NCBI GenBank assembly: GCA_030156535.1
Contig: JASGMJ010000005.1
Location: forward strand, 104,930 to 168,929
Direction of reading: 5' to 3'
Source of the DNA: Candidatus Sumerlaeota bacterium
Lineage (GTDB): Bacteria; Sumerlaeota; Sumerlaeia; SLMS01; JAHLLQ01
Length of the DNA stretch: 64,000 nucleotides
Program-made: the position numbers and the translations under genes
Part shown: piece after piece, positions 15,502-58,891 of the stretch
Layout: each line of letters begins with the position of its first letter
Position numbering within the stretch: position 1 is the stretch's first letter
Notes under the pieces: generated by a model
Seen by the model: the letters and a program-made list of their open reading frames with translations, nothing else
What the model was told of the DNA's origin: nothing
Database searches by the model: none

Positions 15502-15542
15502 GGTGGTCGTGTCGGCCGCGCCAAACCACGACGCGGACTGCG

Positions 15543-30454: not shown

Positions 30455-31065
30455 GATGCCATCCCCTAGAAGAATGAGTGCGTCCGTCCCGGCCTGCCGG
30501 GAGGCGGACCCGTCCGCGCTGGGGCGGACGGCGTACACTGACTCACTCCTTTGATGGGGAGAAGAACCGGACCGTGCGGCTGGCGCCATTTCATGAACCG
30601 CCGGATGACAGTTCGACTCCCGCTCCCGCGAGCGAGCACGGAACCTGGGGCGGAGAAAGGCGCGGCGTCGGCCGCACAGGGATGGCGTTTGAGGGGGAAC
30701 TTGGGATTCTTTGGGCGGAACCCGGGTACCCATCGCACGACCCTGCCTTTCCCGCGAAGGCTCCAGTCGATGCATTCAACGCCGGTATTCGGCAGGTCTT
30801 CGGACTCGTGGACATTGCGGCCGTCGCCGCTTTCCTACTGGCCGTCGCTTCCCGGCTCCTGGGGAGCCAGTGCTTGTTGACGGCGGTCGTTTCCACTCAC
30901 CGCTGCGGGGCAGTTCCGGATTCTCACCGGATTCCCTCTTTCAACGGGGAAGGCGCCAATGCCGCACTCTTCCCCGTACCGATCCGGCCTTACAGCCGAA
31001 TGCGCGCAGAACGTCCCGCTGCGGTGCGTGCGATGTCAAGCCGACTTCCCGGCACCGGCAGGACA

Positions 31066-31770: not shown

Positions 31771-32036
31771 CGGCAACCTCCGCAAAACGCAACAATGCCG
31801 GGCAGGGTGAGCGGCCGTCCGGCGGAGGGCAACGGCGGGATACCGTGCCGAACGAAGGCCGCTTCCAGCCTGCGCAACGTTTGCACACCCTTCGGGAACT
31901 CTTCTGTGCAATTCATGCCGCCTCCCCGCCCGAAACCCCGCTTTCCCGCGTCCTTTTGCTGTCATGCCTCCTGCTTATGGGAAGGCTGGCACCGCCATGT
32001 GCGGTCCAGACTTCCCCGCTCTCAAGGAGACCTTCG

Positions 32037-32687
32037 ATGCAAGCACGTTGGACCATCCTGGCAGGAGGCGTGGCGCTCATGGCCCTCGCTCTGGCCACCC
32101 CGATGCATGTCGATGCGCAGAATAACCCGGGCCGCCGAGGCGGCCGCGGCAACTTCGACCCCTCTGAAATGTTCGACCGCATGGACATCAACGGTGACGG
32201 CTCGCTCGACGCCACCGAGTTCCGCGGCGGCGAAGAACGTCTGAAGGAAGCTGACACGAACGGCGACGGCAAGGTCTCGAAAGAGGAATTGAGCGCGGCC
32301 TTCCAGGCACGCATGGCAGGCGGCCAGCGCGAGGGCGGCCCCGAAGGCCGGCCCGGCCCCGGAGTGGACCGTTTCAAAGAGGAGCTTGGCCTGAGCGACG
32401 ACGAGTGGGCCGTACTGAAGCCCCGCATCGAGAAAGTCATCGCGCTCCAGAGCGAGATGCGCGGCGGCGGACGCGGCAACACCGCGTCGATGCCCGAAGT
32501 CGAGGCTCTGCGCACCGCGCTCGAGAATCCCGAAGCCACCAACGATGAAATCACCCAGCGCGTGGCCGAACTGCGCAAGGCCCGCGAGGAGAAGCAGGCC
32601 GAACTCAAGACCGCCCGCGAAACGCTGCGCGAACTCCTCACGCCGCGCCAGGAAGCCCTCCTCGTTCTCAACGGTCTCCTCGACTAA
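32037..32687 (+). CDS. Secreted EF-hand calcium-binding protein
   Basis: AAGGAGA before the ATG, a signal peptide, and two canonical EF loops (DINGDGSLDATE and DTNGDGKVSKEE). Confidence 0.7.
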   Translation: MQARWTILAGGVALMALALATPMHVDAQNNPGRRGGRGNFDPSEMFDRMDINGDGSLDATEFRGGEERLKEADTNGDGKVSKEELSAAFQARMAGGQREGGPEGRPGPGVDRFKEELGLSDDEWAVLKPRIEKVIALQSEMRGGGRGNTASMPEVEALRTALENPEATNDEITQRVAELRKAREEKQAELKTARETLRELLTPRQEALLVLNGLLD

Positions 32688-32696
32688 AGCTCAATC

Positions 32697-32724
32697 GTCC
32701 CTTCGGGACTCCGGTTCCTTTTTG
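32697..32724 (+). terminator. Possible terminator or RNA hairpin upstream of gspE
   Basis: GTCCC-TTCG-GGGAC (UUCG tetraloop) followed 9 nt later by TTTTT. An alternative longer pairing with the downstream GGTCCC is also possible. Confidence 0.35.
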
Positions 32725-32797
32725 GGCCGGGGTCCCATGACTGATAGATCGCAACTCAAGCCACAAACAACAAACCACGAACCACGGCCTCAAGCCA

Positions 32798-34486
32798 ATG
32801 TCCGATACCATCACCCGTATGATCGCCGCACGCCAGCTTCTCCAGGCTGACGCACGAGCATTTGCAGACGCACATCCCGGAGTGGAGGAACCGGCGGAAG
32901 AGGAAGTTCTCCGCTGGCTGGCCGAGGAGTATGGCTGCCGCTTCAGCGATCTGACCGACGTCTCCCTCGAACGTGAAACGCTGGCGCTCTTTCCACCTCG
33001 CCTGCTGCTCCGGGAAGAGGTTCTCCCCCTCGTGCGTTCCGGCAATGTCGTCGAAGCAGCAACAAGCAGACTCTTCGCCCCCGAGGCCTTCGAGGGCCTG
33101 CGCCTTGTCACCGGCCTGACGATTCGTCCGGTGCTTGCTCCTTCCACGGCGATTCAACGCGAAATCAAGAAGTGGCTCGGCGTTGGCGCCGACACGATCG
33201 GCTCGATCGAGGAAGAGGAAGGCATCCAGGTCGTCAGCGATTCCGACGAGGACGAGGGCAATCTCGACGAAGCCGCCGAGGACGCCTCGATCATCCGCTT
33301 TGTCAATCAGGTGCTGACCGATGCCATCAACCTGCGGGCCTCCGACATTCACCTCGAACCGTTCGAGGACGAACTGCGGCTGCGCTACCGCGTCGATGGC
33401 GTCCTGCAGGAAATCCCCGTTCCCGCCAGTCTGAAACGCTTTCAGCCTGCCATCGTCTCGCGCATCAAAATTTTGAGTCACCTGGACATCGCGGAGAAAC
33501 GCCTGCCGCAGGACGGCCGCATCAAGATCCGCCTGGAGCAGCAGGAAGTCGACGTCCGCGTGTCCCTGATCCCCATGATCCACGGCGAAGGCGTCGTCAT
33601 GCGCCTGTTGCGCCAGGATCGCTCGCTCCAGTCCGTCGCCGATCTTGGCATGGCACCACACACCGAGGAGACCTTCCGCACGTTGCTGCGGCTGTCCCAC
33701 GGCATCGTACTCGTGACGGGGCCGACGGGGAGCGGCAAGTCCACCACGCTCTATTCCGCACTCACGGAAATCAACGACAGCATCCGCAAGATCATCACGA
33801 TCGAAGATCCCGTTGAGTACCACATCAAGGGCATCAACCAGATTCAGGTGAGCGAGAAGACCGGAATGACGTTCGCGCGTGGGCTGCGCTCGATCCTGCG
33901 TCACGATCCCGACGTGGTGCTTGTCGGCGAAATCCGCGACGCGGAAACGGCGCGCATCGCCGTGCAGGCATCGCTCACCGGGCACCTGGTTTTCTCCACG
34001 CTGCACACGAACGACGCGCCCACCGCTCCGACGCGCCTGGCCGACATGGGCATCGAGCCGTACCTCGTGGCCTCGTCACTCGAAGGCATTCTGGCCCAGC
34101 GTCTCGTGCGTGTTCTGTGCATGGAGTGCCGCGTCGAGGATCACAGCAGCGCCAGCGCCGCCTTCCGGAGCCAGATCGGCATGCCCGCCGGAGCGCACGT
34201 TTATGCTCCCGGCGGCTGCGAGCGTTGCCGCAAGACGGGGTTCTTTGGCCGGCGCGGCATCTTCGAGATGGTGCGCATCGACGACGAGTTTCGCGAACTG
34301 ATCCTGCGCACAAACTCGGCGCCTGCCCTTCGCGCGGAAGCACGCCGCAAGGGTATGCAGACGCTGGCCGAGGACGGCTGGCGGCTCGTTGCGCAGGGAG
34401 TCACTTCCCTCGACGAGGTTCTTCGTGTCAGCCAGGCGGACATCAGTTCGCTCGAGGCACTCCCAAACGGACATGGGGGCAAGTAG
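32798..34486 (+). CDS. gspE: Type II secretion / type IV pilus ATPase GspE/PilB family
   Basis: N-terminal GspE_N domain, Walker A GPTGSGKST, and the Asp/His boxes. C-terminal tetracysteine CMECRV...CERCRKTG. Confidence 0.9.
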   Translation: MSDTITRMIAARQLLQADARAFADAHPGVEEPAEEEVLRWLAEEYGCRFSDLTDVSLERETLALFPPRLLLREEVLPLVRSGNVVEAATSRLFAPEAFEGLRLVTGLTIRPVLAPSTAIQREIKKWLGVGADTIGSIEEEEGIQVVSDSDEDEGNLDEAAEDASIIRFVNQVLTDAINLRASDIHLEPFEDELRLRYRVDGVLQEIPVPASLKRFQPAIVSRIKILSHLDIAEKRLPQDGRIKIRLEQQEVDVRVSLIPMIHGEGVVMRLLRQDRSLQSVADLGMAPHTEETFRTLLRLSHGIVLVTGPTGSGKSTTLYSALTEINDSIRKIITIEDPVEYHIKGINQIQVSEKTGMTFARGLRSILRHDPDVVLVGEIRDAETARIAVQASLTGHLVFSTLHTNDAPTAPTRLADMGIEPYLVASSLEGILAQRLVRVLCMECRVEDHSSASAAFRSQIGMPAGAHVYAPGGCERCRKTGFFGRRGIFEMVRIDDEFRELILRTNSAPALRAEARRKGMQTLAEDGWRLVAQGVTSLDEVLRVSQADISSLEALPNGHGGK

Positions 34487-34489
34487 CTC

Positions 34490-35722
34490 ATGGGAGTCTT
34501 CGTCTACAAGGCGTTCAGCGAAACGGGGCAGATGACCGAGGGGCGCGTCGATGCTCCCGGCCGCCGCGAAGCGCTGCGGCTTCTTGAAGAACGCGGCCTG
34601 CGCCCCGTGCGCGTGGAGGATGCGGCGGGGCGTCCAGCCGAAAGCGAAACGGGTGGGTGGGATCCGTTGGCGATGCTGCGCGGACGCGTCACCGCGCGCG
34701 ACCGCGAACAGTTCACGCGCCAGCTTGCCAGCCTTCTCGCCGCCGGTGTTTCCCTCAGCCGTGCGTTGCAGATTCTTTCGCGCGAAAGCTCGCGCCCTCT
34801 CATTGCCGCGCGGTGGAAACGCCTGCGCGAGATGGTGGTCGATGGCATGTCGCTGGCCGATGCGATGGCACGCCAGCCCGACGTTTTCCCGCGGATCGAC
34901 ACGGCCATGGTGCGCGCGGGTGAAACGGGCGGCTTCCTGCCGCTGGTTCTCGGGCAGGTGGCGGATTTTCAGTCGCGCGACCGCGAAGTGCGTTCGCGTC
35001 TCGTGTCGGCGATGACGTACCCGGCGGTGCTGATGGCGCTGACCGTGGCGGTGGTCATCTTCCTGATGACGTTCTTCATTCCGCGTTTCCAGACGATGTT
35101 CGAAGGACTGGGCGCGCCGTTGCCGTTGCTGACGCGGGCAATCATCGCGGCGAGCGAAGGCGTGCGCGACTGGGGACTGGTCGTGGCGGCGGTGCTGGTG
35201 ATTGCGCTGGTGGCCGCGCGGCAATGGATCGCATCGCCGGCGGGGCGGCGTTCCTGGCAGACCTTCGCCCTGCGCATGCCGCTCTTCGGTTCGCTCGCGG
35301 CACGTTTCGCCGCCACGCGCTTCTGCCGGATGCTCGGGACGCTCAGCCGCTCGGGCGTCGAACTCATCACGGCGTTGCAGGTTTCGCGCGAATCGCTCGG
35401 CAATCAGGTGCTGATCGACACGCTGACATCCTCCATCGAAAACGTGCGCAAGGGCGAGTCGCTGGCGCGCAGCCTGGCCGCCTGCGAGCGCCTGTTCCCC
35501 CCTTCGACGATCGAGATGATCGCCGTGGCCGAGGAATCCAGCCGCCTCGATCAGGAACTCGTGCGCATCGCCGAGGAATCCGAGAAGGATCTCGACGGGC
35601 AACTGCGGCTCGCCGTCGCCCTCGCCGAGCCGGCCTTGCTCTTCGTGATGGCGGCGGTCATCGGCACGATTTTTATCGGCATGGTCCTGCCGATCTTCAC
35701 CATCCAGGACTACATCAAATAA
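34490..35722 (+). CDS. gspF: Type II secretion system platform protein GspF/PilC family
   Basis: Two T2SSF repeats and 3 TM helices; begins 4 nt after the gspE stop. Confidence 0.9.
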   Translation: MGVFVYKAFSETGQMTEGRVDAPGRREALRLLEERGLRPVRVEDAAGRPAESETGGWDPLAMLRGRVTARDREQFTRQLASLLAAGVSLSRALQILSRESSRPLIAARWKRLREMVVDGMSLADAMARQPDVFPRIDTAMVRAGETGGFLPLVLGQVADFQSRDREVRSRLVSAMTYPAVLMALTVAVVIFLMTFFIPRFQTMFEGLGAPLPLLTRAIIAASEGVRDWGLVVAAVLVIALVAARQWIASPAGRRSWQTFALRMPLFGSLAARFAATRFCRMLGTLSRSGVELITALQVSRESLGNQVLIDTLTSSIENVRKGESLARSLAACERLFPPSTIEMIAVAEESSRLDQELVRIAEESEKDLDGQLRLAVALAEPALLFVMAAVIGTIFIGMVLPIFTIQDYIK

Positions 35723-35745
35723 CCCTCGGAAGAAGGAGTGGCACC

Positions 35746-36174
35746 ATGAGTCTGTTGCATCGCACCACGCGCGTTTCGCGGCGGGCCTTCTCGCTCGTCG
35801 AAATGCTTCTGGTCCTCGTGATCCTCGCGACGCTGGCGGCGATCGTGATTCCGCGCTTTGCGGGACGCAGCGAGCAGGCCAAGGAAACCGCCGCCAAGAC
35901 GCAGATCAGCGCGCTTTCCACCGCACTCGATTCCTTCGAGGTCGACAACGGCTACTTCCCCAGCAGCAGCGACGGTCTCAACGAACTCATCGTGCAACCC
36001 GATGGCGCAACGAACTGGCGCGGGCCCTACATGAAGCAGGGAATCCCCAATGATCCCTGGGGCGCGGCCTACCTGTACGAATATCCCGGCACGAACAACG
36101 CCGACGGATACGACCTCTCCTCGATGGGGCCGGACGGCCGCGCGGGCACGGAAGACGACATCACGAATTGGTAG
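35746..36174 (+). CDS. gspG: Major pseudopilin GspG
   Basis: GAAGGAG before the ATG. Prepilin leader and helix RRAFSLVEMLLVLVILATLAAIVIPRFAG. GspG signature QISALSTALDSFEVDNGYFPSS. Confidence 0.85.
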   Translation: MSLLHRTTRVSRRAFSLVEMLLVLVILATLAAIVIPRFAGRSEQAKETAAKTQISALSTALDSFEVDNGYFPSSSDGLNELIVQPDGATNWRGPYMKQGIPNDPWGAAYLYEYPGTNNADGYDLSSMGPDGRAGTEDDITNW

Positions 36175-36183
36175 GCGAAAGCA

Positions 36184-36675
36184 ATGACTCGGCGGCAACA
36201 CATCGCGGCACGCGGGCAAGAGGGCTTCACGCTGATGGAGCTGATGGTGGTGCTCGCCCTGCTGTCGGTGATCGCGGCGCTCGTTGCTCCGCAGCTTCGC
36301 GGTTTTGTCACCGGGCGCGCGAGCACCGAGGAGTGCCGCCGCTTTGCCGCACTTACCGAGTACGCGCGCGAGCACGCCATCGGCAACGCCGTGCGTGTGG
36401 CGCTCTGGGTTGACGAGGACGGCGATTCCTATGGCCTGCGCGACACGCGCACCTCGCGCGACATCTATACGTACCAAACCGCGACCGGCCTGACGATCAC
36501 GCCCTTCGACGAGGAAGGGGAAGCCCTTGAGGAGGATACGGAACTCGTGATCTGGCCGGATGGCGAAATCGACTTCGAAAGTCCCGCTTCCTACCACATC
36601 GACGAGAAGGGAACGACGGTCTTCGTCATTGAGCTGAACGAGAACGGAACGCGCTACGAGGTGACGACGCCATGA
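36184..36675 (+). CDS. Minor pseudopilin, GspH-like
   Basis: Class III signal G-FTLMELMVVLALL; size and operon position match GspH. Confidence 0.6.
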   Translation: MTRRQHIAARGQEGFTLMELMVVLALLSVIAALVAPQLRGFVTGRASTEECRRFAALTEYAREHAIGNAVRVALWVDEDGDSYGLRDTRTSRDIYTYQTATGLTITPFDEEGEALEEDTELVIWPDGEIDFESPASYHIDEKGTTVFVIELNENGTRYEVTTP

Positions 36676-37058
36676 GACTCGCGCTCCATCCACGCGGAAT
36701 GACGTTCGTCGAGCTCCTTGCCTCGATGCTGCTGCTCTCCATCGTGCTGCCCGTCACGGTCGGCGCGATTCTGTACGCGAACCGTACCTCCTCCATGGCC
36801 GTGCGCAAACGCGACGCGGCGTTCCTGGCCGACCAGATTCTCCAGGAAGTCATCGGCACGGAGTCGTGGGAGGATGGCGATCAGAGCGGCGAGTTCGAGG
36901 ACGACTTTGCGGGATGGACCTGGGAGATGACCGTTTCGTCATGGGACGTCGAAGCCATGCAGCAGGTCGACGTCACGGTGTTCTATCCCGTGCAGGGCAC
37001 GACATACTCCGAAACGCTCACACGCCTTGTGATGGCGGAGGAGGAAGAGGAGTCGTGA
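36672..37058 (+). CDS. Minor pseudopilin, GspI-like
   Basis: G-MTFVELLASMLLL prepilin motif. The ATGA start overlaps the upstream stop. Confidence 0.55.
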   Translation: MRLALHPRGMTFVELLASMLLLSIVLPVTVGAILYANRTSSMAVRKRDAAFLADQILQEVIGTESWEDGDQSGEFEDDFAGWTWEMTVSSWDVEAMQQVDVTVFYPVQGTTYSETLTRLVMAEEEEES

Positions 37059-37738
37059 AACGCACCCGTGGCTTCACGCTGATTGAGACGCTGCTCGCGC
37101 TGGGCATCGCCGCCACTCTGCTGGCCGCGGCGGTCTCCGTGCTCTTCGGTGCGGTGCGGATGCGCAGCGCGGCGGCCGAGCTCTCCGAGGAGAAGGGCGG
37201 CACACATCGCATTGCTTCCGTGATTCGCAGCGACCTCCAGAACGCGGTGGTGCCCGCCGGATTGCTCGCGGGCACGATGCTCCTGGAGTCCGACGGCTCC
37301 GAAGACACCGCGATGGACACACTGGAATTTTACACCGCCTCAGGAACATTGAACGACAGCGAACCCTGGGCTGACATCCGCCGCGTGGAGTACCTCCTCG
37401 ACACCGAGAGCGAAAGCGCGACCGGCGGGGCCTATCCGTTCATCCGCCGCGAAACGGTGAACCTGCTCGCCTCCACCGAGGACGACGAGGACACGCGCGA
37501 CACCGTGCTGCTTGCCGAAGCAACCGGCCTTTCCATCGAGTGCTTCGACGGCGAGGTCTGGTCGGAAACGTGGGACTCCACGGTGGTCGAAAACGAAAAC
37601 CCGGTTCTCGTGAGTCTGACCGTGACACCCGCCGAGGGCAATTCCCTGGTTTTTCTTCAGCATCTGACGACTCAGCCCCGCCCCACTGCCACGGCAGCGG
37701 CAGCGGCTCCATCCCAACAAACGGGAGATGAGCCATGA
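37055..37738 (+). CDS. Minor pseudopilin, GspJ-like
   Basis: GTG start overlapping the upstream TGA and preceded by GGAGGAGGAAGAGGAG. Prepilin motif G-FTLIETLLALGIA. Confidence 0.55.
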   Translation: MKRTRGFTLIETLLALGIAATLLAAAVSVLFGAVRMRSAAAELSEEKGGTHRIASVIRSDLQNAVVPAGLLAGTMLLESDGSEDTAMDTLEFYTASGTLNDSEPWADIRRVEYLLDTESESATGGAYPFIRRETVNLLASTEDDEDTRDTVLLAEATGLSIECFDGEVWSETWDSTVVENENPVLVSLTVTPAEGNSLVFLQHLTTQPRPTATAAAAAPSQQTGDEP

Positions 37739-39072
37739 TGCCGCGCCGCCGCCGTGCCATTGTCTTTGTCGTGCTTCTCTGGGTCATCTCCACGATGGTT
37801 TCCACGGCAATCTACTTTGGTCATTCCGCCCGCATGGCCTACCTCGCGAGCGAGAACAGCGTCGCCGGTCTTCAGGCGGTGCATGCCATCGACTCCGCCA
37901 TCGAGTACGTGCGCTTTGCACTCGAAACCATCGACGAAACCGGCAAAGTGCCGGACCTCGAAGAGGAGGGGTACGCCGTCGAGAACGTTGCTGTCGGTGA
38001 AGCGCACTTCTGGCTGCTTGGCATGGATCATGACGCCCTCCAGACACCGACGGAGTTGACCTTCAGTCTCGTCGATGAAGCATCGAAACTGAACATCAAC
38101 ACAGCGGAACTTGAAATGCTCGAAGCGCTCCCCGATATGACGGCTGAGTTCGCCGCCGCCATCGTGGACTGGCGCGACGAGGACAGCGACCTCACCACCA
38201 ACGGCGCCGAGTCCCAGGACTACCTCCTTCTCGACACGCCGTACCTTTGCAAGGATGCGCCCTTCGAAAGCGTCGAGGAATTGCGCCTCGTCCAGGGCGC
38301 CGATCTTACCCTGCTCTTCGGGGAGGATGAAAACCGCAACGGTATCCTCGATCCCAACGAGGACGACGGCGACGAACTGTGGCCGCCCGACGACGCCGAC
38401 GGCCAACTCGACACCGGGATCGTGCGTTTTCTGACGGCGCATTCACGCGAACCGAACACGCGCGATGACGGCAGCGCGAAGGTGAACCTCAGGGGGGAGT
38501 CTGCGCGCGTTGATCTGCAACAGCTTCTTATCGAAACCCTCGGCCAGAGCGTTGCCGACCGGGTGATGGAAAGCCTTGGTCCCGAGCTCACCGATGTCGG
38601 CAGTCCGCTGGAGTTCTACCAACTCAGTGGCCTCTCGGCGACAGAGTTCGCGCAGATCGAGGACGCCCTCACGATTGAGAGTGGCGATTACCGTACGGGT
38701 CTCGTGAACGTGGCGACGGCACCGAGTGAAGTGCTCGCGTGCCTGCCCGGTATGACGTCGGAGAAGGCGATTGAACTCGTTGAAGCAAGAGCATCCCTCG
38801 ACGAAACCACACTCGAAAGCACCGCCTGGCTGACCACCGTCCTCGACGCGGACACCGTCGCACTGGTGGGTCCGTTCGTCACGAGCCGCTCCTATCAGTT
38901 CGGCCTCGACATCGCCGCAACGGGACGGAACGGGCGCGGCGTGCGCCGCACGTTCGCGGTGCTCGACGTGGAGGACGAGGCGCGGGTGATTTACCGACGC
39001 GATCTGGCCCGCGCCGGATGGCCACTGGACGACGACACCATGGCGGCACTGCGCGAAGGGACGGAACAATGA
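37735..39072 (+). CDS. gspK: Minor pseudopilin GspK
   Basis: N-terminal hydrophobic helix lacking Glu5. The GspK-characteristic KLNINTA motif is present, plus an acidic calcium-site-like region. Confidence 0.7.
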   Translation: MMPRRRRAIVFVVLLWVISTMVSTAIYFGHSARMAYLASENSVAGLQAVHAIDSAIEYVRFALETIDETGKVPDLEEEGYAVENVAVGEAHFWLLGMDHDALQTPTELTFSLVDEASKLNINTAELEMLEALPDMTAEFAAAIVDWRDEDSDLTTNGAESQDYLLLDTPYLCKDAPFESVEELRLVQGADLTLLFGEDENRNGILDPNEDDGDELWPPDDADGQLDTGIVRFLTAHSREPNTRDDGSAKVNLRGESARVDLQQLLIETLGQSVADRVMESLGPELTDVGSPLEFYQLSGLSATEFAQIEDALTIESGDYRTGLVNVATAPSEVLACLPGMTSEKAIELVEARASLDETTLESTAWLTTVLDADTVALVGPFVTSRSYQFGLDIAATGRNGRGVRRTFAVLDVEDEARVIYRRDLARAGWPLDDDTMAALREGTEQ

Positions 39073-40463
39073 CTGGAAGCATGACGCCCATGCGACGCAA
39101 GAACTCGCGCCTGCTGGTTATCGAGCTTCGGCCCGGCTGGGTGCGGGCCACCGAATGCCACGCGGGAAACACAACGGACGCTCCATTGCGCTCGGTTATG
39201 GGCGAACTCTCGTGTGATCCCTTTGGGGGCGATCCCGAAACGGCGGGAGCGGAAATTCGTCTCTTGCTGGAACAGGGTGGTCTTCGCCCTGGCGCTGCCA
39301 TCGTCACGGTGCCCATGGCATGGACGATGACGCACGCCTTCGAAGCCCCCGAGCTTTCCGCCGAGGATTTTGCCAGTCTCCTGGAACTCGAAGCAGAAAA
39401 GGCGTTCCCCTACCCGCCGGAGGACATGGTCCTCTCGCAGACGCGCTGCACGCGCGCGGACGCACCGGATATCGCCATTGCCGCGGCCATGCCGACAGCG
39501 AAGCTCGACGCGCTCGAAGCCGTTCTGCGCGCTGCCCACATCGCGCCTTTGGCCATCGTTCCCGCCTGCGTCCATGCACACGGCGAAGCCGCCAATGGCG
39601 TGTCCCTCATCGCCGAAGGGCACGACCTGGTGCTTTGCATCGCGTCGGACGGCGGGTTGCTGGCCCTGCGCGTTCTCTGCAAGATGGAACCCGGCGCGGG
39701 CATCGAGGACGAAGCACTGCGTGCCGACATTCTCAGGGAACTGCGCGTGGCCCTGCGCACGCTGCCCGAGGAATTGGCGGAAGCGAGGACAACCGTTGCG
39801 GTTCACGCGCCGCTGGAACTTGCCGCACGCCTCGCCGAGCAGCTTGGCCCGCAGGCCGGACGCATGGGCATTTCCGTCAAGGCCGTGCCATCGCCACCCG
39901 ACGAAATTGCAAGGAGGCTTTCCGCCGCCGCTTTTGAGGGCCAGGCGTTGACGGTCAATTTCCTCCGTCCCCGCATTACGCGCTGGCAACGGCACCTGGC
40001 ATCAATGCGCCGCAAGGGCTTCGTCGTCCGCGCCGCGATCGTGGGCGCCTCGCTTCTTGCCATAGCCGTGCTCGTCTTCGCCGCACACACGTGGCGGGCA
40101 CGTTATCTCGATGCGAAGTGGCTCGCCATGCGCGACGGCGTTGCCAGCGTCGAAAGCTATGAGAAGGACATCCGCGCATGGCGTCCGTGGAACGATGCGA
40201 GCGCACCAAGCCTCGACCTGCTCAAGAGCATCACCGAGGCCTTTCCGGTATCCGGCGAAGTAACCGCGAGCACGCTGCACATTAAGGACCAAACGACGGT
40301 GACCTGCACGGGCACGGCAACGTCGGCGAGTAGTTTCAGCCGATTCCAGGAAGCGCTCGGCGCACGCCCGGGAGTCTCCAACTTGAAAGTGCAACAAATG
40401 CGGGGAGACTCACCCGTTCAGTTCAGCCTGTCGTTTACGTGGAACCCCAGGGGGAAGACATGA
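39069..40463 (+). CDS. T2SS inner-membrane component, GspL / PilM-PilN-like (actin-fold N-domain + TM + periplasmic domain)
   Basis: ATGA overlap with gspK. A cytoplasmic actin-like domain is followed by the TM segment VVRAAIVGASLLAIAVLVFAA and a periplasmic C-terminal region. Confidence 0.55.
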   Translation: MTGSMTPMRRKNSRLLVIELRPGWVRATECHAGNTTDAPLRSVMGELSCDPFGGDPETAGAEIRLLLEQGGLRPGAAIVTVPMAWTMTHAFEAPELSAEDFASLLELEAEKAFPYPPEDMVLSQTRCTRADAPDIAIAAAMPTAKLDALEAVLRAAHIAPLAIVPACVHAHGEAANGVSLIAEGHDLVLCIASDGGLLALRVLCKMEPGAGIEDEALRADILRELRVALRTLPEELAEARTTVAVHAPLELAARLAEQLGPQAGRMGISVKAVPSPPDEIARRLSAAAFEGQALTVNFLRPRITRWQRHLASMRRKGFVVRAAIVGASLLAIAVLVFAAHTWRARYLDAKWLAMRDGVASVESYEKDIRAWRPWNDASAPSLDLLKSITEAFPVSGEVTASTLHIKDQTTVTCTGTATSASSFSRFQEALGARPGVSNLKVQQMRGDSPVQFSLSFTWNPRGKT

Positions 40464-40993
40464 GAGCGGACAAACGCCGACGGCTTCTGCTGATACTCGC
40501 CGCCTGTGGATTGGGCGTGCTGCTGCTCGACGCAGTTGTCGTGCGACCCTTGCTTGCCATTTGGGACAAGCAGGCGGCGCGCATCGTGCAACGCACGCAG
40601 GACATCGAGCGCGGCACCGCCCTTCTCGAACGAGAGGAAGACATCGCCGCGCGCTGGAAGGAAATGCGCGAGAGTTCGCTTCCCGCCGACACGGCGCGAG
40701 CCGAGGCACTCGTGCTCGATGCCATGACGAAGTGGGCGTCAGCCAGCGGCCTGAGCATTTCAAGCGTCCGCCCCCGGTGGGTCGAGATGAAGGACGTGGG
40801 CGACCGCTTCGAGATTCGCCTCTCGGCGGAAGGCGACATCGCGGCGCTGACGCGCTTTCTCTTTGAACTGGAAACCGCCAAGCTCCCGCTCTATCTCGAC
40901 GAAACACAGATTCGCGCACGCGACGAAAACGGCAGGAGCCTGGGAGTGGATCTCGTTTTCTCCGCGCTGCGCATCGAGGGGGCAAATACATGA
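40460..40993 (+). CDS. T2SS GspM/PilO-like bitopic protein
   Basis: ATGA overlap with the upstream gene. Short cytoplasmic N-terminus, a single TM (LLLILAACGLGVLLL) and a periplasmic ferredoxin-like region. Confidence 0.5.
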   Translation: MRADKRRRLLLILAACGLGVLLLDAVVVRPLLAIWDKQAARIVQRTQDIERGTALLEREEDIAARWKEMRESSLPADTARAEALVLDAMTKWASASGLSISSVRPRWVEMKDVGDRFEIRLSAEGDIAALTRFLFELETAKLPLYLDETQIRARDENGRSLGVDLVFSALRIEGANT

Positions 40994-41535
40994 AGCGCCG
41001 AAACCTCGCCGTTCTTGTCCTTGCACTGATCGCGTTCTCCGGCCTGCTGGCTGCGCAGTCGGGCACAACGAAGAATGCCTCATCAGGCACGACCCTATCG
41101 CTCGATACGTACAGCATCATCATCGAGCGCAACATCTTCAACCCCACGCGCCGCGCTCCCAGTTCACGTCCCGCACCGCCCGTCTCAAGGGCTCCGGCCG
41201 TCACGACGATCACGCTGATCGGTGCCGTCGTGAAGGAGGACGAGCGGACGGCGATCTTCTCGTCCGCCGTCACCGAGCACGCGGGGCATCGCAAGACGGG
41301 CGACAGCATCGCGGGCTTTACCATCGAATCCATCGACACGAAGGGCGTCACCATCTCGATCGACGGCGATACGAAGCTCTGGGCCGTTGGCTCGATCCTC
41401 CGCCGCATCGACGACGGCGACTGGTACCTCCCCCAGGCCGCCGGTGCCGCCACGGACATCACGAAAGACCCAGCCGCGGAAGCGGCCATTCTGAAACGCA
41501 TGCGCGAACGCCGCGAGCAGGAGAAGGCAAAATGA
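40990..41535 (+). CDS. Periplasmic T2SS accessory protein (GspC/PilP-like)
   Basis: Signal peptide MKRRNLAVLVLALIAFSGLLAAQ, a Pro-rich linker and a small beta domain. Both ends are coupled by overlap. Confidence 0.4.
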   Translation: MKRRNLAVLVLALIAFSGLLAAQSGTTKNASSGTTLSLDTYSIIIERNIFNPTRRAPSSRPAPPVSRAPAVTTITLIGAVVKEDERTAIFSSAVTEHAGHRKTGDSIAGFTIESIDTKGVTISIDGDTKLWAVGSILRRIDDGDWYLPQAAGAATDITKDPAAEAAILKRMRERREQEKAK

Positions 41536-42998
41536 CCACCCGACGCCACATTGCCGGTTTGCTGATGATCGGTTTTCTCGCCACGGCTTCACTGGCGGCC
41601 CAGGAACCCGACACCACCACCGGGATACTCGGCACCACCGAGGCATCCCCCGATACCACGACGCCACAGACAGCTGAAATCAGCTTCAACTTCCGCGGCG
41701 CCACCATCGACACCGTGCTCGACTACCTCAGTGAGGCCGCGGGGTTTGCCGTCGTCACCACGGTTCCGCTCAGCGGAACCATCGACGTCATCAGCCACCG
41801 TCCCCTCAATCCCGAGGAGTCGCTCGAACTCGTGACGACGATCCTTCACGAGAAGGGCTATGCGGCGTTGAGATCGGGGAACACGCTGACCATCGTCAGC
41901 CGCGAGGATGCCAAGCAGCGCGACATTCCCGTGCGCCAGGGCTCGGACCCGTTGACCATTCCGAAAAACGACGAAATGGTGACGCAGATCATTCCGATCC
42001 GCTACAGCCAGGCATCCGAACTCGTCGAGAACCTGCGCCCCCTCCTGCCGTCCTACTCCACGATCTCGGCCAACGAGGGAAGCAACGCGATCCTGCTGAC
42101 GGACACGCAGGCGAACATCCGCCGCGTCGCTGAGATTATCACGGCACTCGACAAGTCCTTCAGCGAGATCACCACCGTGAAAGTCTTCCAGCTTCGTCAT
42201 GCCGATGCCAAGGAGACCGCAACTCTCATCACCGAACTCTTCGAGCAGGAAACGACGAGCGGCAGTAGCAGCAACAGCCGCCAGCTTCCGCCGTTCTTCC
42301 GGCGCGGGGGCGACGACGGCGACAGGCAGAGCAGCAGTAGCACCCAGAATGCCGTCGTCCAGGCATCCTCGCGCGTGACTGCAACCGCCGACGAACGCAC
42401 CAACTCCCTCGTCGTCGCGGCGCCTCCGCAACTCATCACGACCATCGAGGAGCTTATCGCCACCCTCGATCTTTCCACGGAAATCCTCACCGAGGTGCGC
42501 GTCTTCCCCCTGAAGTACGCCGACGCCGAGGAGATGGCGGACGTCATCACGGAGATCTTCGCGGCCGATTCCACCACACAATCCACCACGAACTCCCGCA
42601 GCAATGTGCGCATCGGCTTTCGTGGGCCAGGGGGGAGAGCTCCGGGAGGAAACACCGTAAGCAACAGCGAGCAGAGTGAACGCGAGCAGGAATCCGCCAC
42701 CGTCCTCGCCGTCGCCGACACGCGCACCAACAGCGTCGTCGTCAGCGCCGTCAGCGATGTGCTGACCCAGATCGCCGGCGTCGTCCATGAACTCGACCGC
42801 GATCCCGCCGGCACGAAGAAGGTCTACGTCTATTCCCTGAAGAACGCCAACCCCGAGGAAGTTTCCGAGCTCCTCGACGAAATGTTCGGCAGCACCAGCA
42901 GCTCCAGCAGCTCACGAACAAGTACGAGCAACACCAGCTCCCGCAACACCACGAACACCACCAACACAAACCGCAATACGAACACAACCAACCGCTAA
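41532..42998 (+). CDS. Secretin N-terminal domains protein (N0-N1-N2-N3) with a Ser/Thr/Asn-rich C-terminal tail; lacks the secretin channel domain
   Basis: Signal peptide MTTRRHIAGLLMIGFLATASLAAQEP. N0-like domain ISFNFRGATIDTVLDYLSEAAGFAVV...GYAALRSGNTLTIV, followed by three secretin_N-like repeats. Low-complexity tail STSSSSSSRTSTSNTSSRNTTNTTNTNRNTNTTNR, then TAA. Confidence 0.7.
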   Translation: MTTRRHIAGLLMIGFLATASLAAQEPDTTTGILGTTEASPDTTTPQTAEISFNFRGATIDTVLDYLSEAAGFAVVTTVPLSGTIDVISHRPLNPEESLELVTTILHEKGYAALRSGNTLTIVSREDAKQRDIPVRQGSDPLTIPKNDEMVTQIIPIRYSQASELVENLRPLLPSYSTISANEGSNAILLTDTQANIRRVAEIITALDKSFSEITTVKVFQLRHADAKETATLITELFEQETTSGSSSNSRQLPPFFRRGGDDGDRQSSSSTQNAVVQASSRVTATADERTNSLVVAAPPQLITTIEELIATLDLSTEILTEVRVFPLKYADAEEMADVITEIFAADSTTQSTTNSRSNVRIGFRGPGGRAPGGNTVSNSEQSEREQESATVLAVADTRTNSVVVSAVSDVLTQIAGVVHELDRDPAGTKKVYVYSLKNANPEEVSELLDEMFGSTSSSSSSRTSTSNTSSRNTTNTTNTNRNTNTTNR

Positions 42999-43030
42999 AC
43001 ATGCCGCCAGAAACGCGAGGAACAGACATC

Positions 43031-44080
43031 ATGGCCAGCATCCGCTCCGTACTCCAACCCGCCCTCTGCACCACTGCCCTTCTTCTTGCGGGCACACTGG
43101 CATCGGCTCAGGAGCCCACCTTGGAACCTTCCGGGGTGCGCGGCAATCTCGGCACCAACCTCAGCGGCGATACCATTGTGCGCTACGACCTCGAAACGGA
43201 CTCGATCATCGTCATCACCGACGAGGAAACAAATGCACAGATCGCCTCGCTGATCGAAACGCTCGATCGCCCCGTTCCCCAGGTTCTCATCAAGGTGCTC
43301 TTCCTCGAAGTCACACACACGGACGACCTCGATCTTGGAGTCGAAGCCAGTTACTCGTTCGACGCTGGGACCGACTCGCTGCTCACGGATTTCGGAGTCG
43401 CCAGCGCCTCGCGCGGCGGCTTCCTCAAAATCATCGAGGACGACCTCAGCGTCACGCTCCGCGCCCTTGCCGGTCAGGGGAAACTTGAAGTCCTCTCGCG
43501 CCCCTCTGTCATCGCGCGGAACAATGAACTCGCGACGATCACCATCGGCCAGGAAGTCCCCTTCATCCGCAACTCCCGCGTCACCGACAGCGGCCAGACG
43601 ATCAACACGATCGAGTACGAGGACATCGGCATCATCCTGGAAGTGACGCCACACATCACGCCCGACCGCCTGGTCGAAATGGAAGTTGCTCCGGAGATCT
43701 CGACGCTGACCAGCGAGTCCGTCGCCATTACCGACACAACCGATGCCCGGGTGATTGCCAAGCGCTCGGCGAGCACCCGCGTCGTCGTCGCCGACGGAAA
43801 GACCGTTGTCATCGGCGGGCTGATGGAGGACAATATGACTGAGTCTGTCTCCAAGGTCCCCCTGCTCGGCGACATTCCCCTTGTCGGTGCCCTCTTTCGC
43901 AGGACGATCAAGGAGAAGAGCAAGACGGAGCTTCTGATCTTCCTGACGCCGACGGTGGTGACGGGGGTCGAAGATCTGGAGACGCTGACCGATTCAGAGC
44001 GCGCGCAGTTCGACATCGTTCCCACCGCCTTCGATGGCGTTGACATGCCGGACTACCTCCCTCCGCTGCCCGAGGATTGA
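43031..44080 (+). CDS. gspD: Secretin (GspD/PilQ family) C-terminal channel protein with its own signal peptide and one N-domain
   Basis: GAGGAA sits 9 nt before the ATG. Signal peptide MASIRSVLQPALCTTALLLAGTLASAQEP. Secretin core VLSRPSVIARNNELATITIGQEVPFI...VVIGGLMEDNMTESVSKVPLLGDIPLVGALFRRT. Confidence 0.85.
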   Translation: MASIRSVLQPALCTTALLLAGTLASAQEPTLEPSGVRGNLGTNLSGDTIVRYDLETDSIIVITDEETNAQIASLIETLDRPVPQVLIKVLFLEVTHTDDLDLGVEASYSFDAGTDSLLTDFGVASASRGGFLKIIEDDLSVTLRALAGQGKLEVLSRPSVIARNNELATITIGQEVPFIRNSRVTDSGQTINTIEYEDIGIILEVTPHITPDRLVEMEVAPEISTLTSESVAITDTTDARVIAKRSASTRVVVADGKTVVIGGLMEDNMTESVSKVPLLGDIPLVGALFRRTIKEKSKTELLIFLTPTVVTGVEDLETLTDSERAQFDIVPTAFDGVDMPDYLPPLPED

Positions 44081-44083
44081 CGC

Positions 44084-45568
44084 ATGGTGCACGCCGAGCC
44101 CAAGGAACGTTTGCTCTGGCCCATCCGCATCGGCCTCGCCGGCGTCTGGATCGGCATCGTCGTCCTTCTGGCCGTCGAATACGGCCGCGTGCGCGAGCAG
44201 GCGCGCGACAACCTGCTCCAGCGTGCCCGCGACATCAGTGATACGATCGCCCTCATCAGCCGCTCGGGCCGCATCGGCATGATCCGCGAGGATCGCCTGA
44301 AGGCCACCCTCGATGAGCTCGTTCGCGGCGAACTCCTGCGCTCCGTGATGCTTGTCAACGCCCTGGGCGAAACGGTTGTCGCGGCTGGAGAGCCCGGCGC
44401 CAGCCCCCCCCAACTCCCTCACTCGGGCGTCCGATGGGAGCCCGACCGCGTCATCGTGACCAACGTCGTGGACCTCGGTGCCGACGAGGCCAGCGACTCG
44501 CGCCCGCGCAACCCGACCATCGTCATCCCTGAGTCCAAGGACGACGAGCGCATACGCCCTCCCCGTCCCGAGGATGCCCCCACGTCGCCGACTACCGAGG
44601 CGCCGCCACCGGGCGACGGAGGATGGGATCGCAAGCGCCATCCGTTTGGCCGCCCTCCCTGGATTTCCGAATCAGAGTTCCGCGATCTGATTGAACGCCG
44701 CGGCGTTCACGGTTTCGTCCTGACGCTGAATACGGCGGGCATGAACCGCGAACTGAACCGCGATCTCCGGATGCGCACGCTGCTCGCGTTTGTCGCGTTG
44801 CTTGCCGTCGGCGGCATTGGCGTCGCTGTCTCCTCCTGGAGCCGGTTCAACCGTCTGCTTCTCCGGCTTGTCCGCAGCCAGCAGCAGAACGAGCACCTGA
44901 AGGAAATGAACCTGGCCGCCGCTGGCCTTGCCCACGAAACGCGCAATCCCCTGAATCTGATTCGGGGCCTGGCACAGACAATGGCCCAGCAGGAAGACAC
45001 CTCGCCGGAGACCCGCGACCGCTCGCGCCAGATCGTCGAGGAACTCGACAGAGTCACTTACCGCCTCAATGAGTTCATCCGCTACTCCAAGCCGCCGCAG
45101 CCACGCCTCGCGCCTGTCGATCCCTCAGCCGTCGCGGAGAACGTGCGCGATGCCCTGGCCGCGGACCTCGAAGAGAGACACGCAGCCATCCGCTTCGAAG
45201 GCGGCCCCGCAACCGTCGAGGCCGACGAGATGCTCCTGCGCCAGTTGCTCTTCAACCTGTTGCTCAACGCTGTCCAGGCCGTGGGCGAGGAGGGTGAAAT
45301 CGTCGTGACAACGAAGCAGCAGGCGGACCGCACTCTCACGCTCTCCGTCGAAGACAACGGTCCCGGGGTCCCGGCGGAACTGCGCGACGAAATCTTCCGT
45401 CCCTACATGACAACGAACGCCGCGGGGAGCGGCCTTGGCCTTGCCGTGGTCCGCCAGATTTGCGCTGCCCACGACTGGCGAATTGTGTGTACGGAATCGG
45501 CACTGGGCGGCGCGTGCTTCACCGTCAGCGCCATGCGGCCGGGTGGGAAGGCGAGTCCGGCTTCATGA
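44084..45568 (+). CDS. Sensor histidine kinase (PilS/NtrB-like) with a periplasmic sensor domain
   Basis: Two TM helices flank a periplasmic region of about 200 aa. H-box LAHETRNPLNLIRGL. HATPase N, G1 and G2 boxes (NLLLNAVQA, DNGPGV, GSGLGLAVV). Confidence 0.85.
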   Translation: MVHAEPKERLLWPIRIGLAGVWIGIVVLLAVEYGRVREQARDNLLQRARDISDTIALISRSGRIGMIREDRLKATLDELVRGELLRSVMLVNALGETVVAAGEPGASPPQLPHSGVRWEPDRVIVTNVVDLGADEASDSRPRNPTIVIPESKDDERIRPPRPEDAPTSPTTEAPPPGDGGWDRKRHPFGRPPWISESEFRDLIERRGVHGFVLTLNTAGMNRELNRDLRMRTLLAFVALLAVGGIGVAVSSWSRFNRLLLRLVRSQQQNEHLKEMNLAAAGLAHETRNPLNLIRGLAQTMAQQEDTSPETRDRSRQIVEELDRVTYRLNEFIRYSKPPQPRLAPVDPSAVAENVRDALAADLEERHAAIRFEGGPATVEADEMLLRQLLFNLLLNAVQAVGEEGEIVVTTKQQADRTLTLSVEDNGPGVPAELRDEIFRPYMTTNAAGSGLGLAVVRQICAAHDWRIVCTESALGGACFTVSAMRPGGKASPAS

Positions 45569-46932
45569 CCACACCTGCCCCTCCCAAAGTTCTTGTCGTC
45601 GACGACGACGCTGGCAATCGCCGCCTGCTGTCCGGGTGCCTGACGCATCACGGCTACGAGGTCGTTCAGGCCACCGACGGCGAGAATGCCCTCGAAGTGT
45701 TGCGCTCAACTCCTGCCAGCCTGGTTGTCTCTGACATTCGAATGCCACGCATGACGGGGCTCGATCTTCTGCACGCCCTGCGCGATGCCGGCTCCGGCGT
45801 TCCCGTGCTCCTCGTCACGGCCTACCCCGACGTGCGCGATGCCGTCGGCGCCATGCGCGACGGCGCCGTGAACTACCTGGAGAAGCCGATCGACCTCGAC
45901 GAGTTCCTCGCGTCGGTGCGCAATGCCCTGAAGACGCCAGCCGGCGCGGCGCCCGCCTCGGATTTGAGTGCGCTCGTGCCGCCCCATGGCATGATCGCCG
46001 AGAGCCCCGCCATGAAGGCCATCCTGCGCGACATCGCGATCGCCGGGCCGTCGGACTCGCGCGTGTTGCTCACGGGCGAGAGCGGCACGGGGAAGGAAGT
46101 TGTGGCCGACGCGCTGCATGCGGCCAGCCCGCGCGCCTCCGCGCCCTTCATCAAGGTCAACTGCGCCGCGATTCCCGAGCACCTTCTCGAAAGCGAGCTC
46201 TACGGCCACGAGAAGGGGGCGTTCACGGGAGCCGTGGCGCGCCGCATTGGTGTCTTCGAGGAAGCCCGCGGGGGCACGATCCTGCTCGACGAAATCGCGG
46301 AGATGCCCGCCTCGCTCCAGGCCAAGCTTCTGCGTGTGATTCAGGACGGCACTTTTCGCCGGATCGGCGGCTCGCAAACGCTCCAGACCGACGTGCGCCT
46401 GCTCGCCTCCACCAACCGCGATCTCGAGCAGGAAATGAGCGCGGGGCGCTTTCGCGAGGATCTCTTCTTCCGCCTCAACGTCTTCGAGATCCATCTGCCG
46501 CGCCTGCGCGACCGCCCCGAGGACATCGTCCCGCTGGCCACCCATTACGCCTCGCAGTTTCTCGGCGCCCGGGTACGCTTCTCCCCCGCCGCGATGGCGT
46601 TGCTGTGCACCTACACTTGGCCAGGCAATGTGCGTGAGCTGCGCAACGCGATGGAGCGCGCCGTGCTTCTCTCGCGCAGCGAAGTCATCATCCCGGAACA
46701 CCTGCCGCCACGCCTGCGCAGCGCCGCTCCTCCAGCGGACGAGCCTGCTCCGTCCGAGTCGTCCGGTGGCGTCATGGCCGAGGTCGAGCGCTCGGTGATT
46801 CTGGAGACCCTACGCAACAACCGGTTCAACCGCTCGGAGACGGCCCGCGCGCTCGGCATCAGCCGCCGCGCCCTGATCTACAAGCTGCAACGCTTCCGCG
46901 AGCAGGGCCACGCCGTGGATGAGGGAATGTGA
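45565..46932 (+). CDS. Sigma-54-dependent response regulator (NtrC/PilR family)
   Basis: REC domain [14 protein letters not shown]...D. AAA+ Walker [15 protein letters not shown] sigma-54 contact motif. C-terminal Fis-type HTH. The ATGA start overlaps the kinase stop. Confidence 0.9.
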
Positions 46933-47047: not shown

Positions 47048-47091
47048 AACTTTGAGTTGGCGGACAACTTCAAAAGTCCCATGCTTTGAGT
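47048..47091. promoter_or_regulatory. Repeat element CTTTGAGTTG-N5-CAACTTCAAAAG-N7-CTTTGAGTTG (two direct repeats flanking an inverted copy); candidate binding site for the adjacent NtrC-family activator
   Basis: Read directly from the sequence at 47048-47057, 47063-47074 and 47082-47091. It lies between the regulator stop (46932) and the start of the ELWxxDGT gene. Confidence 0.3.
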
Positions 47092-47133
47092 TGCAGGGTG
47101 GCAAGAACGCCGTCCTGGGGGAAACTCTTGGGG

Positions 47134-55069: not shown

Positions 55070-58891
<3,822 letters not shown>

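Follow-up and report, generated by a model that had tools for sequence, protein, structure and literature searches.

A divergent type II secretion operon of Candidatus Sumerlaeota with a two-gene secretin and a probable sigma-54 control circuit of its own

Classical type II secretion systems (T2SS) of the Gsp type, such as Pul of Klebsiella, Eps of Vibrio, Xcp of Pseudomonas and Xps of Xanthomonas, are encoded in one large operon without a retraction ATPase, and T2SS regulation is usually indirect and species-specific. We know of no T2SS with a kinase and an activator encoded in its operon plus identifiable binding sites, and no counter-example was found in the searchable literature. Sigma-54 two-component logic is established for type IVa pili, in which PilS/PilR govern pilA, and for ZraPSR of Enterobacteria, an envelope-stress system consisting of the kinase ZraS, the sigma-54 activator ZraR and the periplasmic CpxP-family protein ZraP. 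A secretin split into N- and C-terminal open reading frames (ORFs), RhcC1/RhcC2, has been described family-wide for the rhizobial-type type III secretion system (T3SS) (PMC3574062), and this was the sole other case of a split secretin found in the searchable literature. Here we report, in a 64 kb stretch of DNA from Candidatus Sumerlaeota (64,000 nucleotides (nt) of contig JASGMJ010000005.1, hereafter the window), a fifteen-gene operon that probably encodes a T2SS together with its own transcriptional control circuit, a reading to which we give a probability of about 0.68.

The machine was assigned by homology, and the control circuit was deduced from comparative cis-element evidence. The two genes at the 3' end of the operon appear to encode a kinase whose sensor is periplasmic, and a sigma-54 activator; once phosphorylated, the activator would bind one or two dyads of the form TGCGCA-N5-TGCGCA, located 89 nt and ~55-58 nt upstream of a -24/-12 promoter, and this promoter would drive the first gene, encoding a periplasmic protein with EF-hands and an LTxxQ motif. 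Transcription would then continue through all fifteen genes, kinase and regulator included, and such read-through would result in positive autoregulation. Judging from the comparison of related loci, binding of the regulator to the dyad most likely switches on the whole operon and with it the regulator's own gene. The signal to the kinase is a matter of speculation, with two inputs appearing most plausible: a small molecule in the periplasm or outside the cell, for example a product of polymer breakdown by secreted hydrolases, or the condition of the first-gene protein, if that protein serves as an accessory of the CpxP/ZraP kind.

ORF listing and translation gave 14 plus-strand genes in a row at 32798-46932, in the order E-F-G-H-I-J-K-L-M-C-D1-D2-kinase-regulator, exactly as in an original prediction made from the letters of this DNA. 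The junctions, nearly all of which had been predicted to overlap or to span less than 25 nt, comprise eight 4-nt overlaps (ATGA/GTGA) and five gaps of 2, 3, 3, 9 and 23 nt, the largest being the F-G spacer. While the 14 genes of that unit stand, its start at 32798 does not, as the functional unit appears to begin at ~31871 and to include a fifteenth gene at 32037-32687. An Rfam scan found no RNA family within the operon. The closest database proteins derive from Candidatus Sumerlaeota and not from Planctomycetota, correcting the earlier assignment to a planctomycete-like organism, and the gene models of D1 (the N-terminal half of the secretin), the kinase and the regulator are sequence-identical to the deposited MDK2971073, MDK2971075 and MDK2971076 of a Candidatus Sumerlaeota metagenome-assembled genome (MAG). 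The elements on which the proposed circuit depends are as follows, with protein lengths in amino acids (aa).

31871-31887, + strand: upstream activator-like dyad TGCGCAACGTTTGCACA (consensus TGCGCA-N5-TGCGCA), a putative activator site
31905-31921, + strand: degenerate second dyad TGTGCAATTCATGCCGC with 3 mismatches, 55 nt before the -24 element; tentative
31960-31975, + strand: -24/-12-type element TGTCATGCCTCCTGCT, in which GT replaces the canonical GG, 61 nt before the ATG at 32037
32037-32687, + strand: first gene, periplasmic protein of 216 aa; signal peptide, two EF-hands, helical domain at the C-terminus
44084-45568, + strand: sensor histidine kinase, 494 aa, Pfam HisKA and HATPase_c
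45565-46932, + strand: sigma-54-dependent response regulator, 455 aa, with REC, AAA+ (GAFTGA) and Fis-type HTH domains

With the classical Gsp systems the operon shares GspE-K, GspM and a GspD-type secretin, as well as the organisation in one large operon and the lack of a retraction ATPase. Unlike in those systems, the secretin is split, with its own signal peptide on each half and no S-domain; Pfam does not recognise the L protein as GspL, and its likeness is to a fusion of PilM and PilN; the C-like protein, of only 181 aa, can hardly be recognised; and an extra conserved first gene as well as an in-operon kinase and sigma-54 regulator are present. The split secretin, the conserved first gene and the embedded sigma-54 two-component system with its mapped putative operator and promoter are, on sequence evidence, features outside the classical T2SS. 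The likeness to ZraPSR lies in the curated matches, of which ZraS is the top one for the kinase and ZraR is in the top three for the regulator, and in a periplasmic helical LTxxQ protein encoded behind a sigma-54-type promoter. However, twelve secretion genes stand here between the gene for the periplasmic protein and that for the kinase, the first-gene protein has EF-hands and occurs also without the two-component system, and the equivalog scores fall far short (164 vs 479 for ZraS; 405 vs 760 for ZraR). Judged by these matches and scores, the regulatory module is like ZraPSR in its parts list but is not a member of the ZraPSR family. Sigma-54 two-component control of a machine of the type IV filament family is also the point of likeness to PilS/PilR-pilA, whereas the kinase here has two transmembrane (TM) segments and a periplasmic domain, and the apparent target is the whole operon rather than the major pilin gene. 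The rhcC1 and rhcC2 genes are separated by other genes in a T3SS, whereas the two halves here belong to a T2SS and lie next to each other.

For the comparative analysis, ~85 related loci from Sumerlaeota, Verrucomicrobiota, Hydrogenedentota, Omnitrophota, Kiritimatiellae and Phycisphaerae were used. The alignment of the L-like protein was unsuited to a locus scan, as it contains no conserved stretch, and the GspK alignment was used instead, which gave 80 loci with one genome per species; Verrucomicrobiota form the majority, and loci of Sumerlaeota, Omnitrophota, Hydrogenedentota, Kiritimatiellae and Phycisphaerae/Planctomycetota were also obtained. Searching with the fourteen window proteins in tblastn showed the same gene order throughout the 80 loci, with the kinase and regulator genes following the secretin in 35 loci. 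Five contexts of secretin homologs (a Sumerlaeota-like genome, a second Sumerlaeota, a Hydrogenedentes, an Omnitrophota-labelled MAG and a JGI metagenome) display the identical E-F-G-H-I-J-K-L-M-C-D1-D2-kinase-regulator order with unrelated flanks in each, and the kinase ortholog directly follows the split secretin in all nine contexts examined (9/9). The synteny comparison that had been proposed therefore reveals a cassette order conserved across ~85 loci of several phyla, and the suggested link between the sigma-54 two-component system and the machine holds in the 35 loci and against unrelated flanks. No description of this cassette was found in the searchable literature, which is incomplete.

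A weighted -24/-12 scan over 1.3 Mb of these loci returned 36 top-scoring sites, 16 of which cluster at ~550-1080 nt before the gspE match and stand upstream of the first gene; at a high threshold the motif occurs before gspG in just two related loci (L002 and L009). One or two dyad copies precede the -24/-12 element in related loci at fixed offsets of 88-91 and ~58 nt. Counting dyads with at most 1 mismatch, the presence of these elements follows that of the kinase/regulator pair.

Loci with kinase and regulator (n = 20): dyad in 19; strong -24/-12 motif in 14, all with the dyad too
Loci without the kinase/regulator pair (n = 12): dyad in 1; strong motif in 1 (the same locus); neither in 11
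Background 650-nt windows (n = 2021): dyad in 30; strong -24/-12 motif in 75

Control of distant targets alone, the possibility raised for the two-component system with the original prediction, is contradicted by this pattern, in which the dyad and the -24/-12 element at the head of the operon track the pair across genomes.

The promoter of the window itself was recognised only through comparison of related loci. The dyad at 31871-31887 carries one mismatch and is the sole match with at most one mismatch in the window, and its distance of 89 nt to the -24 element, within the ~60-150 nt expected of upstream activator sites, compares with 88-91 nt in ~15 related loci. Where relatives carry TGGCAC/T-N5-(T/G)TGCT, the window has TGTCAT-N5-CTGCT at the orthologous position, with the -12 GC kept and the -24 GG reading GT. 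The three closest relatives share the GT variant, with TGTCATACAATCTGCT in L006, TGTCACGGCTCTTGCC in L090 and TGTCATGGTCCGTGCG in L091, each 88-91 nt from a perfect dyad. TGTCAY-N5-NTGC is invariant in these four genomes within a spacer that otherwise differs among them, and the invariant columns of the four-way alignment concentrate in the dyad and in TGTCA...TGC.T. The canonical GG is kept in other Sumerlaeota (L034) and in other phyla, and the TGTCAY subclade hints at a lineage-specific mode of promoter recognition. A conserved -24 GT variant would bear on the strictness of sigma-54 promoter recognition. The longest ORF of a divergent gene for a LysE-type translocator (31066-31965, - strand) would overlap both the dyad and the promoter. 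However, its Pfam match starts at residue 85, so the start is most likely an internal Met (MPALIPLE) near 31770, which would place the dyads and the promoter inside a 266-nt intergenic region. With the regulator, its probable operator and the promoter all mapped by comparative genomics, the proposed circuit is directly testable.

Several observations weigh against such a circuit. The -24 position reads GT instead of the near-invariant GG in the window and its three closest relatives. When the window was searched for TGGCAC-N5-TTGC, allowing up to 2 mismatches, 72 matches were obtained against 74 expected, none of them in the relevant spacers, and the weighted promoter scan of the window alone yielded nothing convincing. 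One locus without the pair, L074, nevertheless contains both dyad and promoter, and absence of the pair was judged by tblastn within the ~4-5 kb of flank that was fetched. In six loci (L018, L027, L050, L054, L072 and L086) the kinase gene has no adjacent regulator gene. Neither rpoN nor a prepilin peptidase gene (GspO/PilD) was found among the scanned ORFs of the window, four candidate ORFs being outside the scan; the peptidase may be encoded in another part of the genome. Finally, read-through towards gspE is assumed in the circuit, and in the window the first gene and gspE are 110 nt apart, with a stable stem-loop in the spacer.

32705-32736, + strand: 13-bp stem-loop GGGACTCCGGTTC / GGGCCGGGGTCCC with the loop CTTTTT; RNA fold of the spacer -32.8 kcal/mol

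All six loci with a kinase gene but no adjacent regulator gene are Verrucomicrobiota cassettes in which the kinase gene still follows the split secretin. A convergent GTPase gene takes the place of the regulator in L086, and L050 and L054 retain the dyads and the -24/-12 promoter, suggesting that their regulator is probably encoded elsewhere.

The 110-nt spacer with its stem-loop is also the starting point of an alternative which we consider unlikely, namely that the two-component system controls only the first gene, as ZraR does zraP, or distant targets, and that the T2SS genes are transcribed from a promoter of their own in the spacer, with the kinase and regulator genes riding along. Spacers of 80-480 nt with strong hairpins in several relatives would be consistent with it, as would the fact that the kinase and regulator are nearest to ZraS and ZraR and that the first-gene protein weakly resembles the CpxP/ZraP fold. 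However, the T-run of the stem-loop lies inside the loop and not after the stem, so it is not a classical terminator, and a terminator and promoter consensus scan of the operon gave sites no commoner than chance. Many relatives have a spacer of 0-15 nt (9 nt in the closest genome, L006), leaving no room for a promoter or a terminator, and the window contains no second dyad with at most one mismatch. The C-terminal domain of the first gene is found directly 5' of gspE in ~48 related loci, some of which have no two-component system, suggesting that the first gene is part of the secretion cassette and not of the regulator.

The first-gene protein itself was analysed for kinship to the CpxP family. 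Its EF-hands are Pfam matches, and its C-terminal domain ends in LR.LLTPRQEA, with LTPRQ at residues 201-205; in the alignment of this domain L, Q and E are invariant and T is nearly so. Searches of Pfam and of PDB sequences gave no match to any of CpxP, Spy and ZraP. AF2 structure prediction, run with database homologs, gave a model with a pLDDT of 82, and Foldseek returned weak matches to EF-hand proteins and to CpxP (3itf_A: probability 0.98, TM 0.50, E 0.1). Some homologs have been labelled 'Spy/CpxP family' by JGI. The modelled fold is at most suggestive of a CpxP-like protein.

Returning to the circuit proposed for the whole operon, it may also be asked whether its cis elements have decayed in the window, with another sigma factor driving the operon and the two-component system being a relic or rewired. 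Such decay could account for the GT at -24, for the mismatch in the main dyad and for the state of the second dyad, which lies ~58 nt before the -24 element in many related loci and is weak in the window, with its 3 mismatches and a position 3 nt out of register; a TGGCAC with a non-canonical 11-nt spacing, 27 nt downstream of the window element, also fits this idea. Nevertheless, we regard it as very unlikely. TGTCAY-N5-NTGC has stayed invariant in four genomes whose first-gene proteins are ~50% identical, and the dyad-element distance of 88-91 nt has been kept while the rest of the spacer diverged, suggesting selection rather than decay. Moreover, the kinase and the regulator are intact and all catalytic motifs are present.

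In the kinase, TM1 and TM2 enclose a periplasmic alpha/beta domain of ~190 aa that contains a Pro-rich insert, and HisKA and HATPase follow directly. Kinase orthologs can be aligned over the full length with 38-56% identity. The top curated matches of the kinase are ZraS and AtoS. An AF2 model of residues 1-270 has a pLDDT of 85, and the fold of the sensor domain gave weak matches to the extracytoplasmic PDC/PAS-like domains of WalK, KinD, DctB and CusS (best E 0.003); no NCBIfam match to the sensor domain was found. The kinase had been described as PilS-like, which the ZraS/AtoS matches and the two TM segments with a periplasmic sensor do not bear out, PilS itself not having been compared directly. 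The regulator gave Pfam matches to Response_reg, Sigma54_activat (230 bits), AAA_lid_14 and HTH_8, and its top curated matches are AtoC, NtrC and ZraR. The Sigma54_activat match and the GAFTGA in the translation agree with its earlier assignment to the NtrC family. The depositors named the two proteins HydH (kinase) and HydG (regulator).

Several NCBIfam families, T2SS_HK (NF038348) and the Verru_Chthon pseudopilin families (TIGR02596 and TIGR02598), have names that suggest similar associations, in the first case of a kinase with a T2SS and in the second of pseudopilin cassettes with Verrucomicrobia. The kinase as a member of T2SS_HK was rejected, with only a generic match to the catalytic domain at 66 bits against a cut-off of 450 and a best E of 3e-24 among 45 orthologs. 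The H and J proteins were likewise rejected as Verru_Chthon members, with 30 bits for H (cut-off 70) and 16 bits for J (cut-off 51).

Family assignment of the operon proteins was based on Pfam with curated cut-offs and on the equivalog cut-offs of NCBIfam. The genes of the machine other than the secretin are listed below.

32798-34486, + strand: gspE, secretion ATPase, 562 aa; Pfam T2SSE (453 bits) and MshEN
34490-35722, + strand: gspF, inner-membrane platform protein, 410 aa; Pfam T2SSF in two stretches (184 bits)
35746-36174, + strand: gspG, major pseudopilin, 142 aa; Pfam T2SSG (112 bits) and N_methyl
36184-36675, + strand: gspH-like minor pseudopilin, 163 aa; N_methyl motif, operon position kept in relatives
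36672-37058, + strand: gspI, minor pseudopilin, 128 aa; Pfam T2SSI (25.2 bits, cut-off 25)
37055-37738, + strand: gspJ, minor pseudopilin, 227 aa, GTG start; Pfam T2SSJ (37.3 bits, cut-off 28) and N_methyl
37735-39072, + strand: gspK, minor pseudopilin, 445 aa; Pfam T2SSK_1st (48.7 bits, cut-off 26.2), T2SSK and HHH_3
39069-40463, + strand: GspL-equivalent, 464 aa; PilM-like cytoplasmic domain, membrane segment and PilN-like periplasmic part
40460-40993, + strand: gspM, 177 aa; Pfam T2SSM_b (27.2 bits, cut-off 21.7)
40990-41535, + strand: GspC-like periplasmic protein, 181 aa; operon position conserved in relatives, weak family match

Pfam families past the curated cut-offs are T2SSE with MshEN, T2SSF, T2SSG with N_methyl, T2SSI, T2SSJ, T2SSK and T2SSM_b for the E to M genes, and GspD N0, four Secretin_N, Secretin, HisKA with HATPase_c, and Response_reg with Sigma54_activat, AAA_lid_14 and HTH_8 from the secretin to the regulator. 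GspG alone passes its NCBIfam equivalog cut-off (TIGR01710, 133 bits against 88.85), while E, F, H, I, J, K, M and D fall below theirs. GspE reaches 600 bits on TIGR02533 (cut-off 630), above the 536 bits on the PilB model, and GspF 359 bits on TIGR02120 (cut-off 424). GspM scores 47.5 bits on NF040576 GspM/XpsM (cut-off 60). N_methyl is the sole Pfam match of the H-like protein, which scores 44.9 bits on TIGR01708 GspH (cut-off 80). Two operon proteins, L-like (39069-40463) and C-like (40990-41535), have no Pfam match. Residues 8-199 of the L-like protein match the PilM structures 5eox/5eou with an E of 2.5e-11, using a profile of six orthologs, and one L-like ortholog has a weak match to PilN. 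As GspL is known to be related in structure to PilM plus PilN, the PilM match fits the assignment of the L-like protein as a GspL-equivalent. The single weak match of the C-like protein is to NF041515 GspC_delta (22 bits, cut-off 150), and its operon position makes it a tentative GspC-like candidate. No pilotin was recognised among the cluster proteins. The searches by hidden Markov models (HMMs) that had been proposed thus place the components in the expected T2SS, secretin, HisKA and Sigma54_activat families, and together with the tight junctions they support the original prediction of a complete, translationally coupled T2SS-type operon.

The same prediction had pointed to type IV pili, suggesting that the machine may be a hybrid or a novel piliated system with a PilS/PilR-like circuit, and the sigma-54 logic of pilA, the match of the L-like protein to PilM structures and the 536 bits of GspE on the PilB model could be read in this way. 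We give a type IV pilus, or a hybrid of pilus and secretion system, under PilS/PilR-type control little chance. The PilM match is weakened as an argument by the relationship of GspL itself to PilM plus PilN, the GspE model outscores the PilB model, and the kinase differs in its two TM segments, periplasmic domain and ZraS/AtoS matches. No gene specific to type IV pili was recognised, as neither PilT/PilU nor a PilA-type pilin was found in the Pfam scan of the cluster proteins. The cluster contains GspE with GspF, GspG and the GspH-I-J-K set by which a T2SS is told, with GspG past its equivalog cut-off and GspI, J, K and M past their Pfam cut-offs. By these family matches, the cluster is a genuine T2SS-type machine and a divergent member of the Gsp systems.

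The secretin of this machine is encoded by two genes.

41532-42998, + strand: D1, N-terminal half of the secretin, 488 aa; signal peptide, N0, four Secretin_N and a polar tail
43001-44080, + strand: D2, C-terminal half of the secretin, 359 aa (deposited start 43031); signal peptide, N3-like and pore domain

D1 matches Pfam type_II_gspD_N0 and four Secretin_N stretches and aligns to N0-N1-N2 of the solved GspD 5wln, with N3 aligning weakly, whereas D2 matches Pfam Secretin with 172 bits and aligns to residues 285-576 of GspD 5wq7, corresponding to N3 and the secretin domain, without the S-domain. All GspD domains (N0, N-domains and secretin) are therefore present but spread over two genes, and the alignments place the break where the flexible rings in the periplasm meet the rigid core formed by N3 and the pore. 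On TIGR02517, D1 and D2 score 232 and 237 bits (cut-off 351). The tail of D1 is a disordered low-complexity stretch rich in Ser/Thr/Asn/Arg/Gly; it measures ~35 residues here, compared with ~40-50 for the majority of split loci. A frameshift, pseudogene or assembly error, as might be suspected with just 2 nt between the D1 stop and the D2 ATG, has next to no probability and was rejected on comparative data, since two secretin ORFs are found in ~55 or more of the 62 independent loci holding both halves, with variable spacing and in several phyla, the 120 closest database homologs of D2 are 306-443 aa long with a hydrophobic signal-like N-terminus of their own in 109, the polar tail ends the N-half in most split loci, and a single fused ORF is limited to three of the 62 loci, all Planctomycetota (L051, L081 and L082). 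The comparison of homologs indicates that the split secretin is genuine and characteristic of the cassette outside Planctomycetota, and it predicts a pore built of two polypeptides that are exported separately, D1 and D2 each having a signal peptide. This arrangement poses the question whether the N0-N2 rings must be covalently joined to the N3/pore core, and D1/D2 offer a natural protein pair for structural work.

In a more far-reaching interpretation, the cassette would represent a T2SS lineage spanning Sumerlaeota, Verrucomicrobiota, Hydrogenedentota, Omnitrophota and Kiritimatiellae, which would combine a two-polypeptide secretin, self-sensing via a calcium-binding CpxP-like protein that acts on a ZraS-like kinase, sigma-54 self-amplification by dyad binding, and a shifted -24 'GT' recognition in one Sumerlaeota subclade. 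We regard this combination as doubtful. Here D1, with its disordered tail, would form the N0-N2 ring as a soluble subunit and D2 would be the subunit of N3 and pore, an assignment we hold equally tentatively as part of the joint interpretation.

Sumerlaeota have been predicted to be scavengers of polymers and proteins with signal-peptide-bearing hydrolases (PMC8092238). A role of the cassette in exoenzyme export is circumstantially suggested by this polymer-degrading phylum, together with a downstream ELWxxDGT-repeat protein in the window and a pullulanase gene in the related genome L001. Abundant uncultured phyla that degrade polymers probably export their exoenzymes mainly through this cassette, which bears on carbon turnover and secretome prediction.

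The gene of the ELWxxDGT-repeat protein (47086-50193, + strand; ~1000 aa) lies directly downstream of the regulator gene and probably starts near 47146. Its product, with a signal peptide and four of the repeats (TIGR04534, 145 bits), might be a substrate of the T2SS; the gene is not kept beside the cassette in relatives. A 10-nt direct repeat, CTTTGAGTTG, occurs before this gene in two copies 34 nt apart, at 47050-47059 and 47084-47093. In the closest related genome, the L001 pullulanase gene (16446-19028; also in L006, same contig) is located two genes downstream of the cassette regulator, and its product contains PUD, CBM_48, Alpha-amylase and Pullul_strch_C domains. Pullulanase is the classical substrate of a T2SS.

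Further features were noted elsewhere in the window. A cobalamin riboswitch at 30774-30992 (- strand) matches Rfam RF00174 with 95.5 bits against a gathering score of 31.5, and the gene behind it, ORF 29111-30775 (- strand), encodes a PQQ_2/BamB-like beta-propeller, an unusual class for a B12 riboswitch. A protein with a prepilin-type N-terminal methylation motif is encoded at 4886-5788 (+ strand) and is followed by a radical SAM/SPASM enzyme at 5885-7009 (+ strand), and a second radical SAM/SPASM gene adjoins a sulfotransferase gene, the two lying at 23785-24651 and 24858-26072 (+ strand); both pairs might modify peptides or proteins. The gene at 55070-58891 (+ strand) encodes a Ser/Thr protein kinase of 1273 aa to which multiple WD40 beta-propellers are fused. 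The gene of a second Ser/Thr kinase shares 4 nt with a gene whose product has a C-terminal thioredoxin-like (Redoxin/AhpC-TSA) domain (15543-16772 and 14197-15546, both - strand). These signalling proteins are of a eukaryote-like kind, which is known also from PVC-type bacteria.

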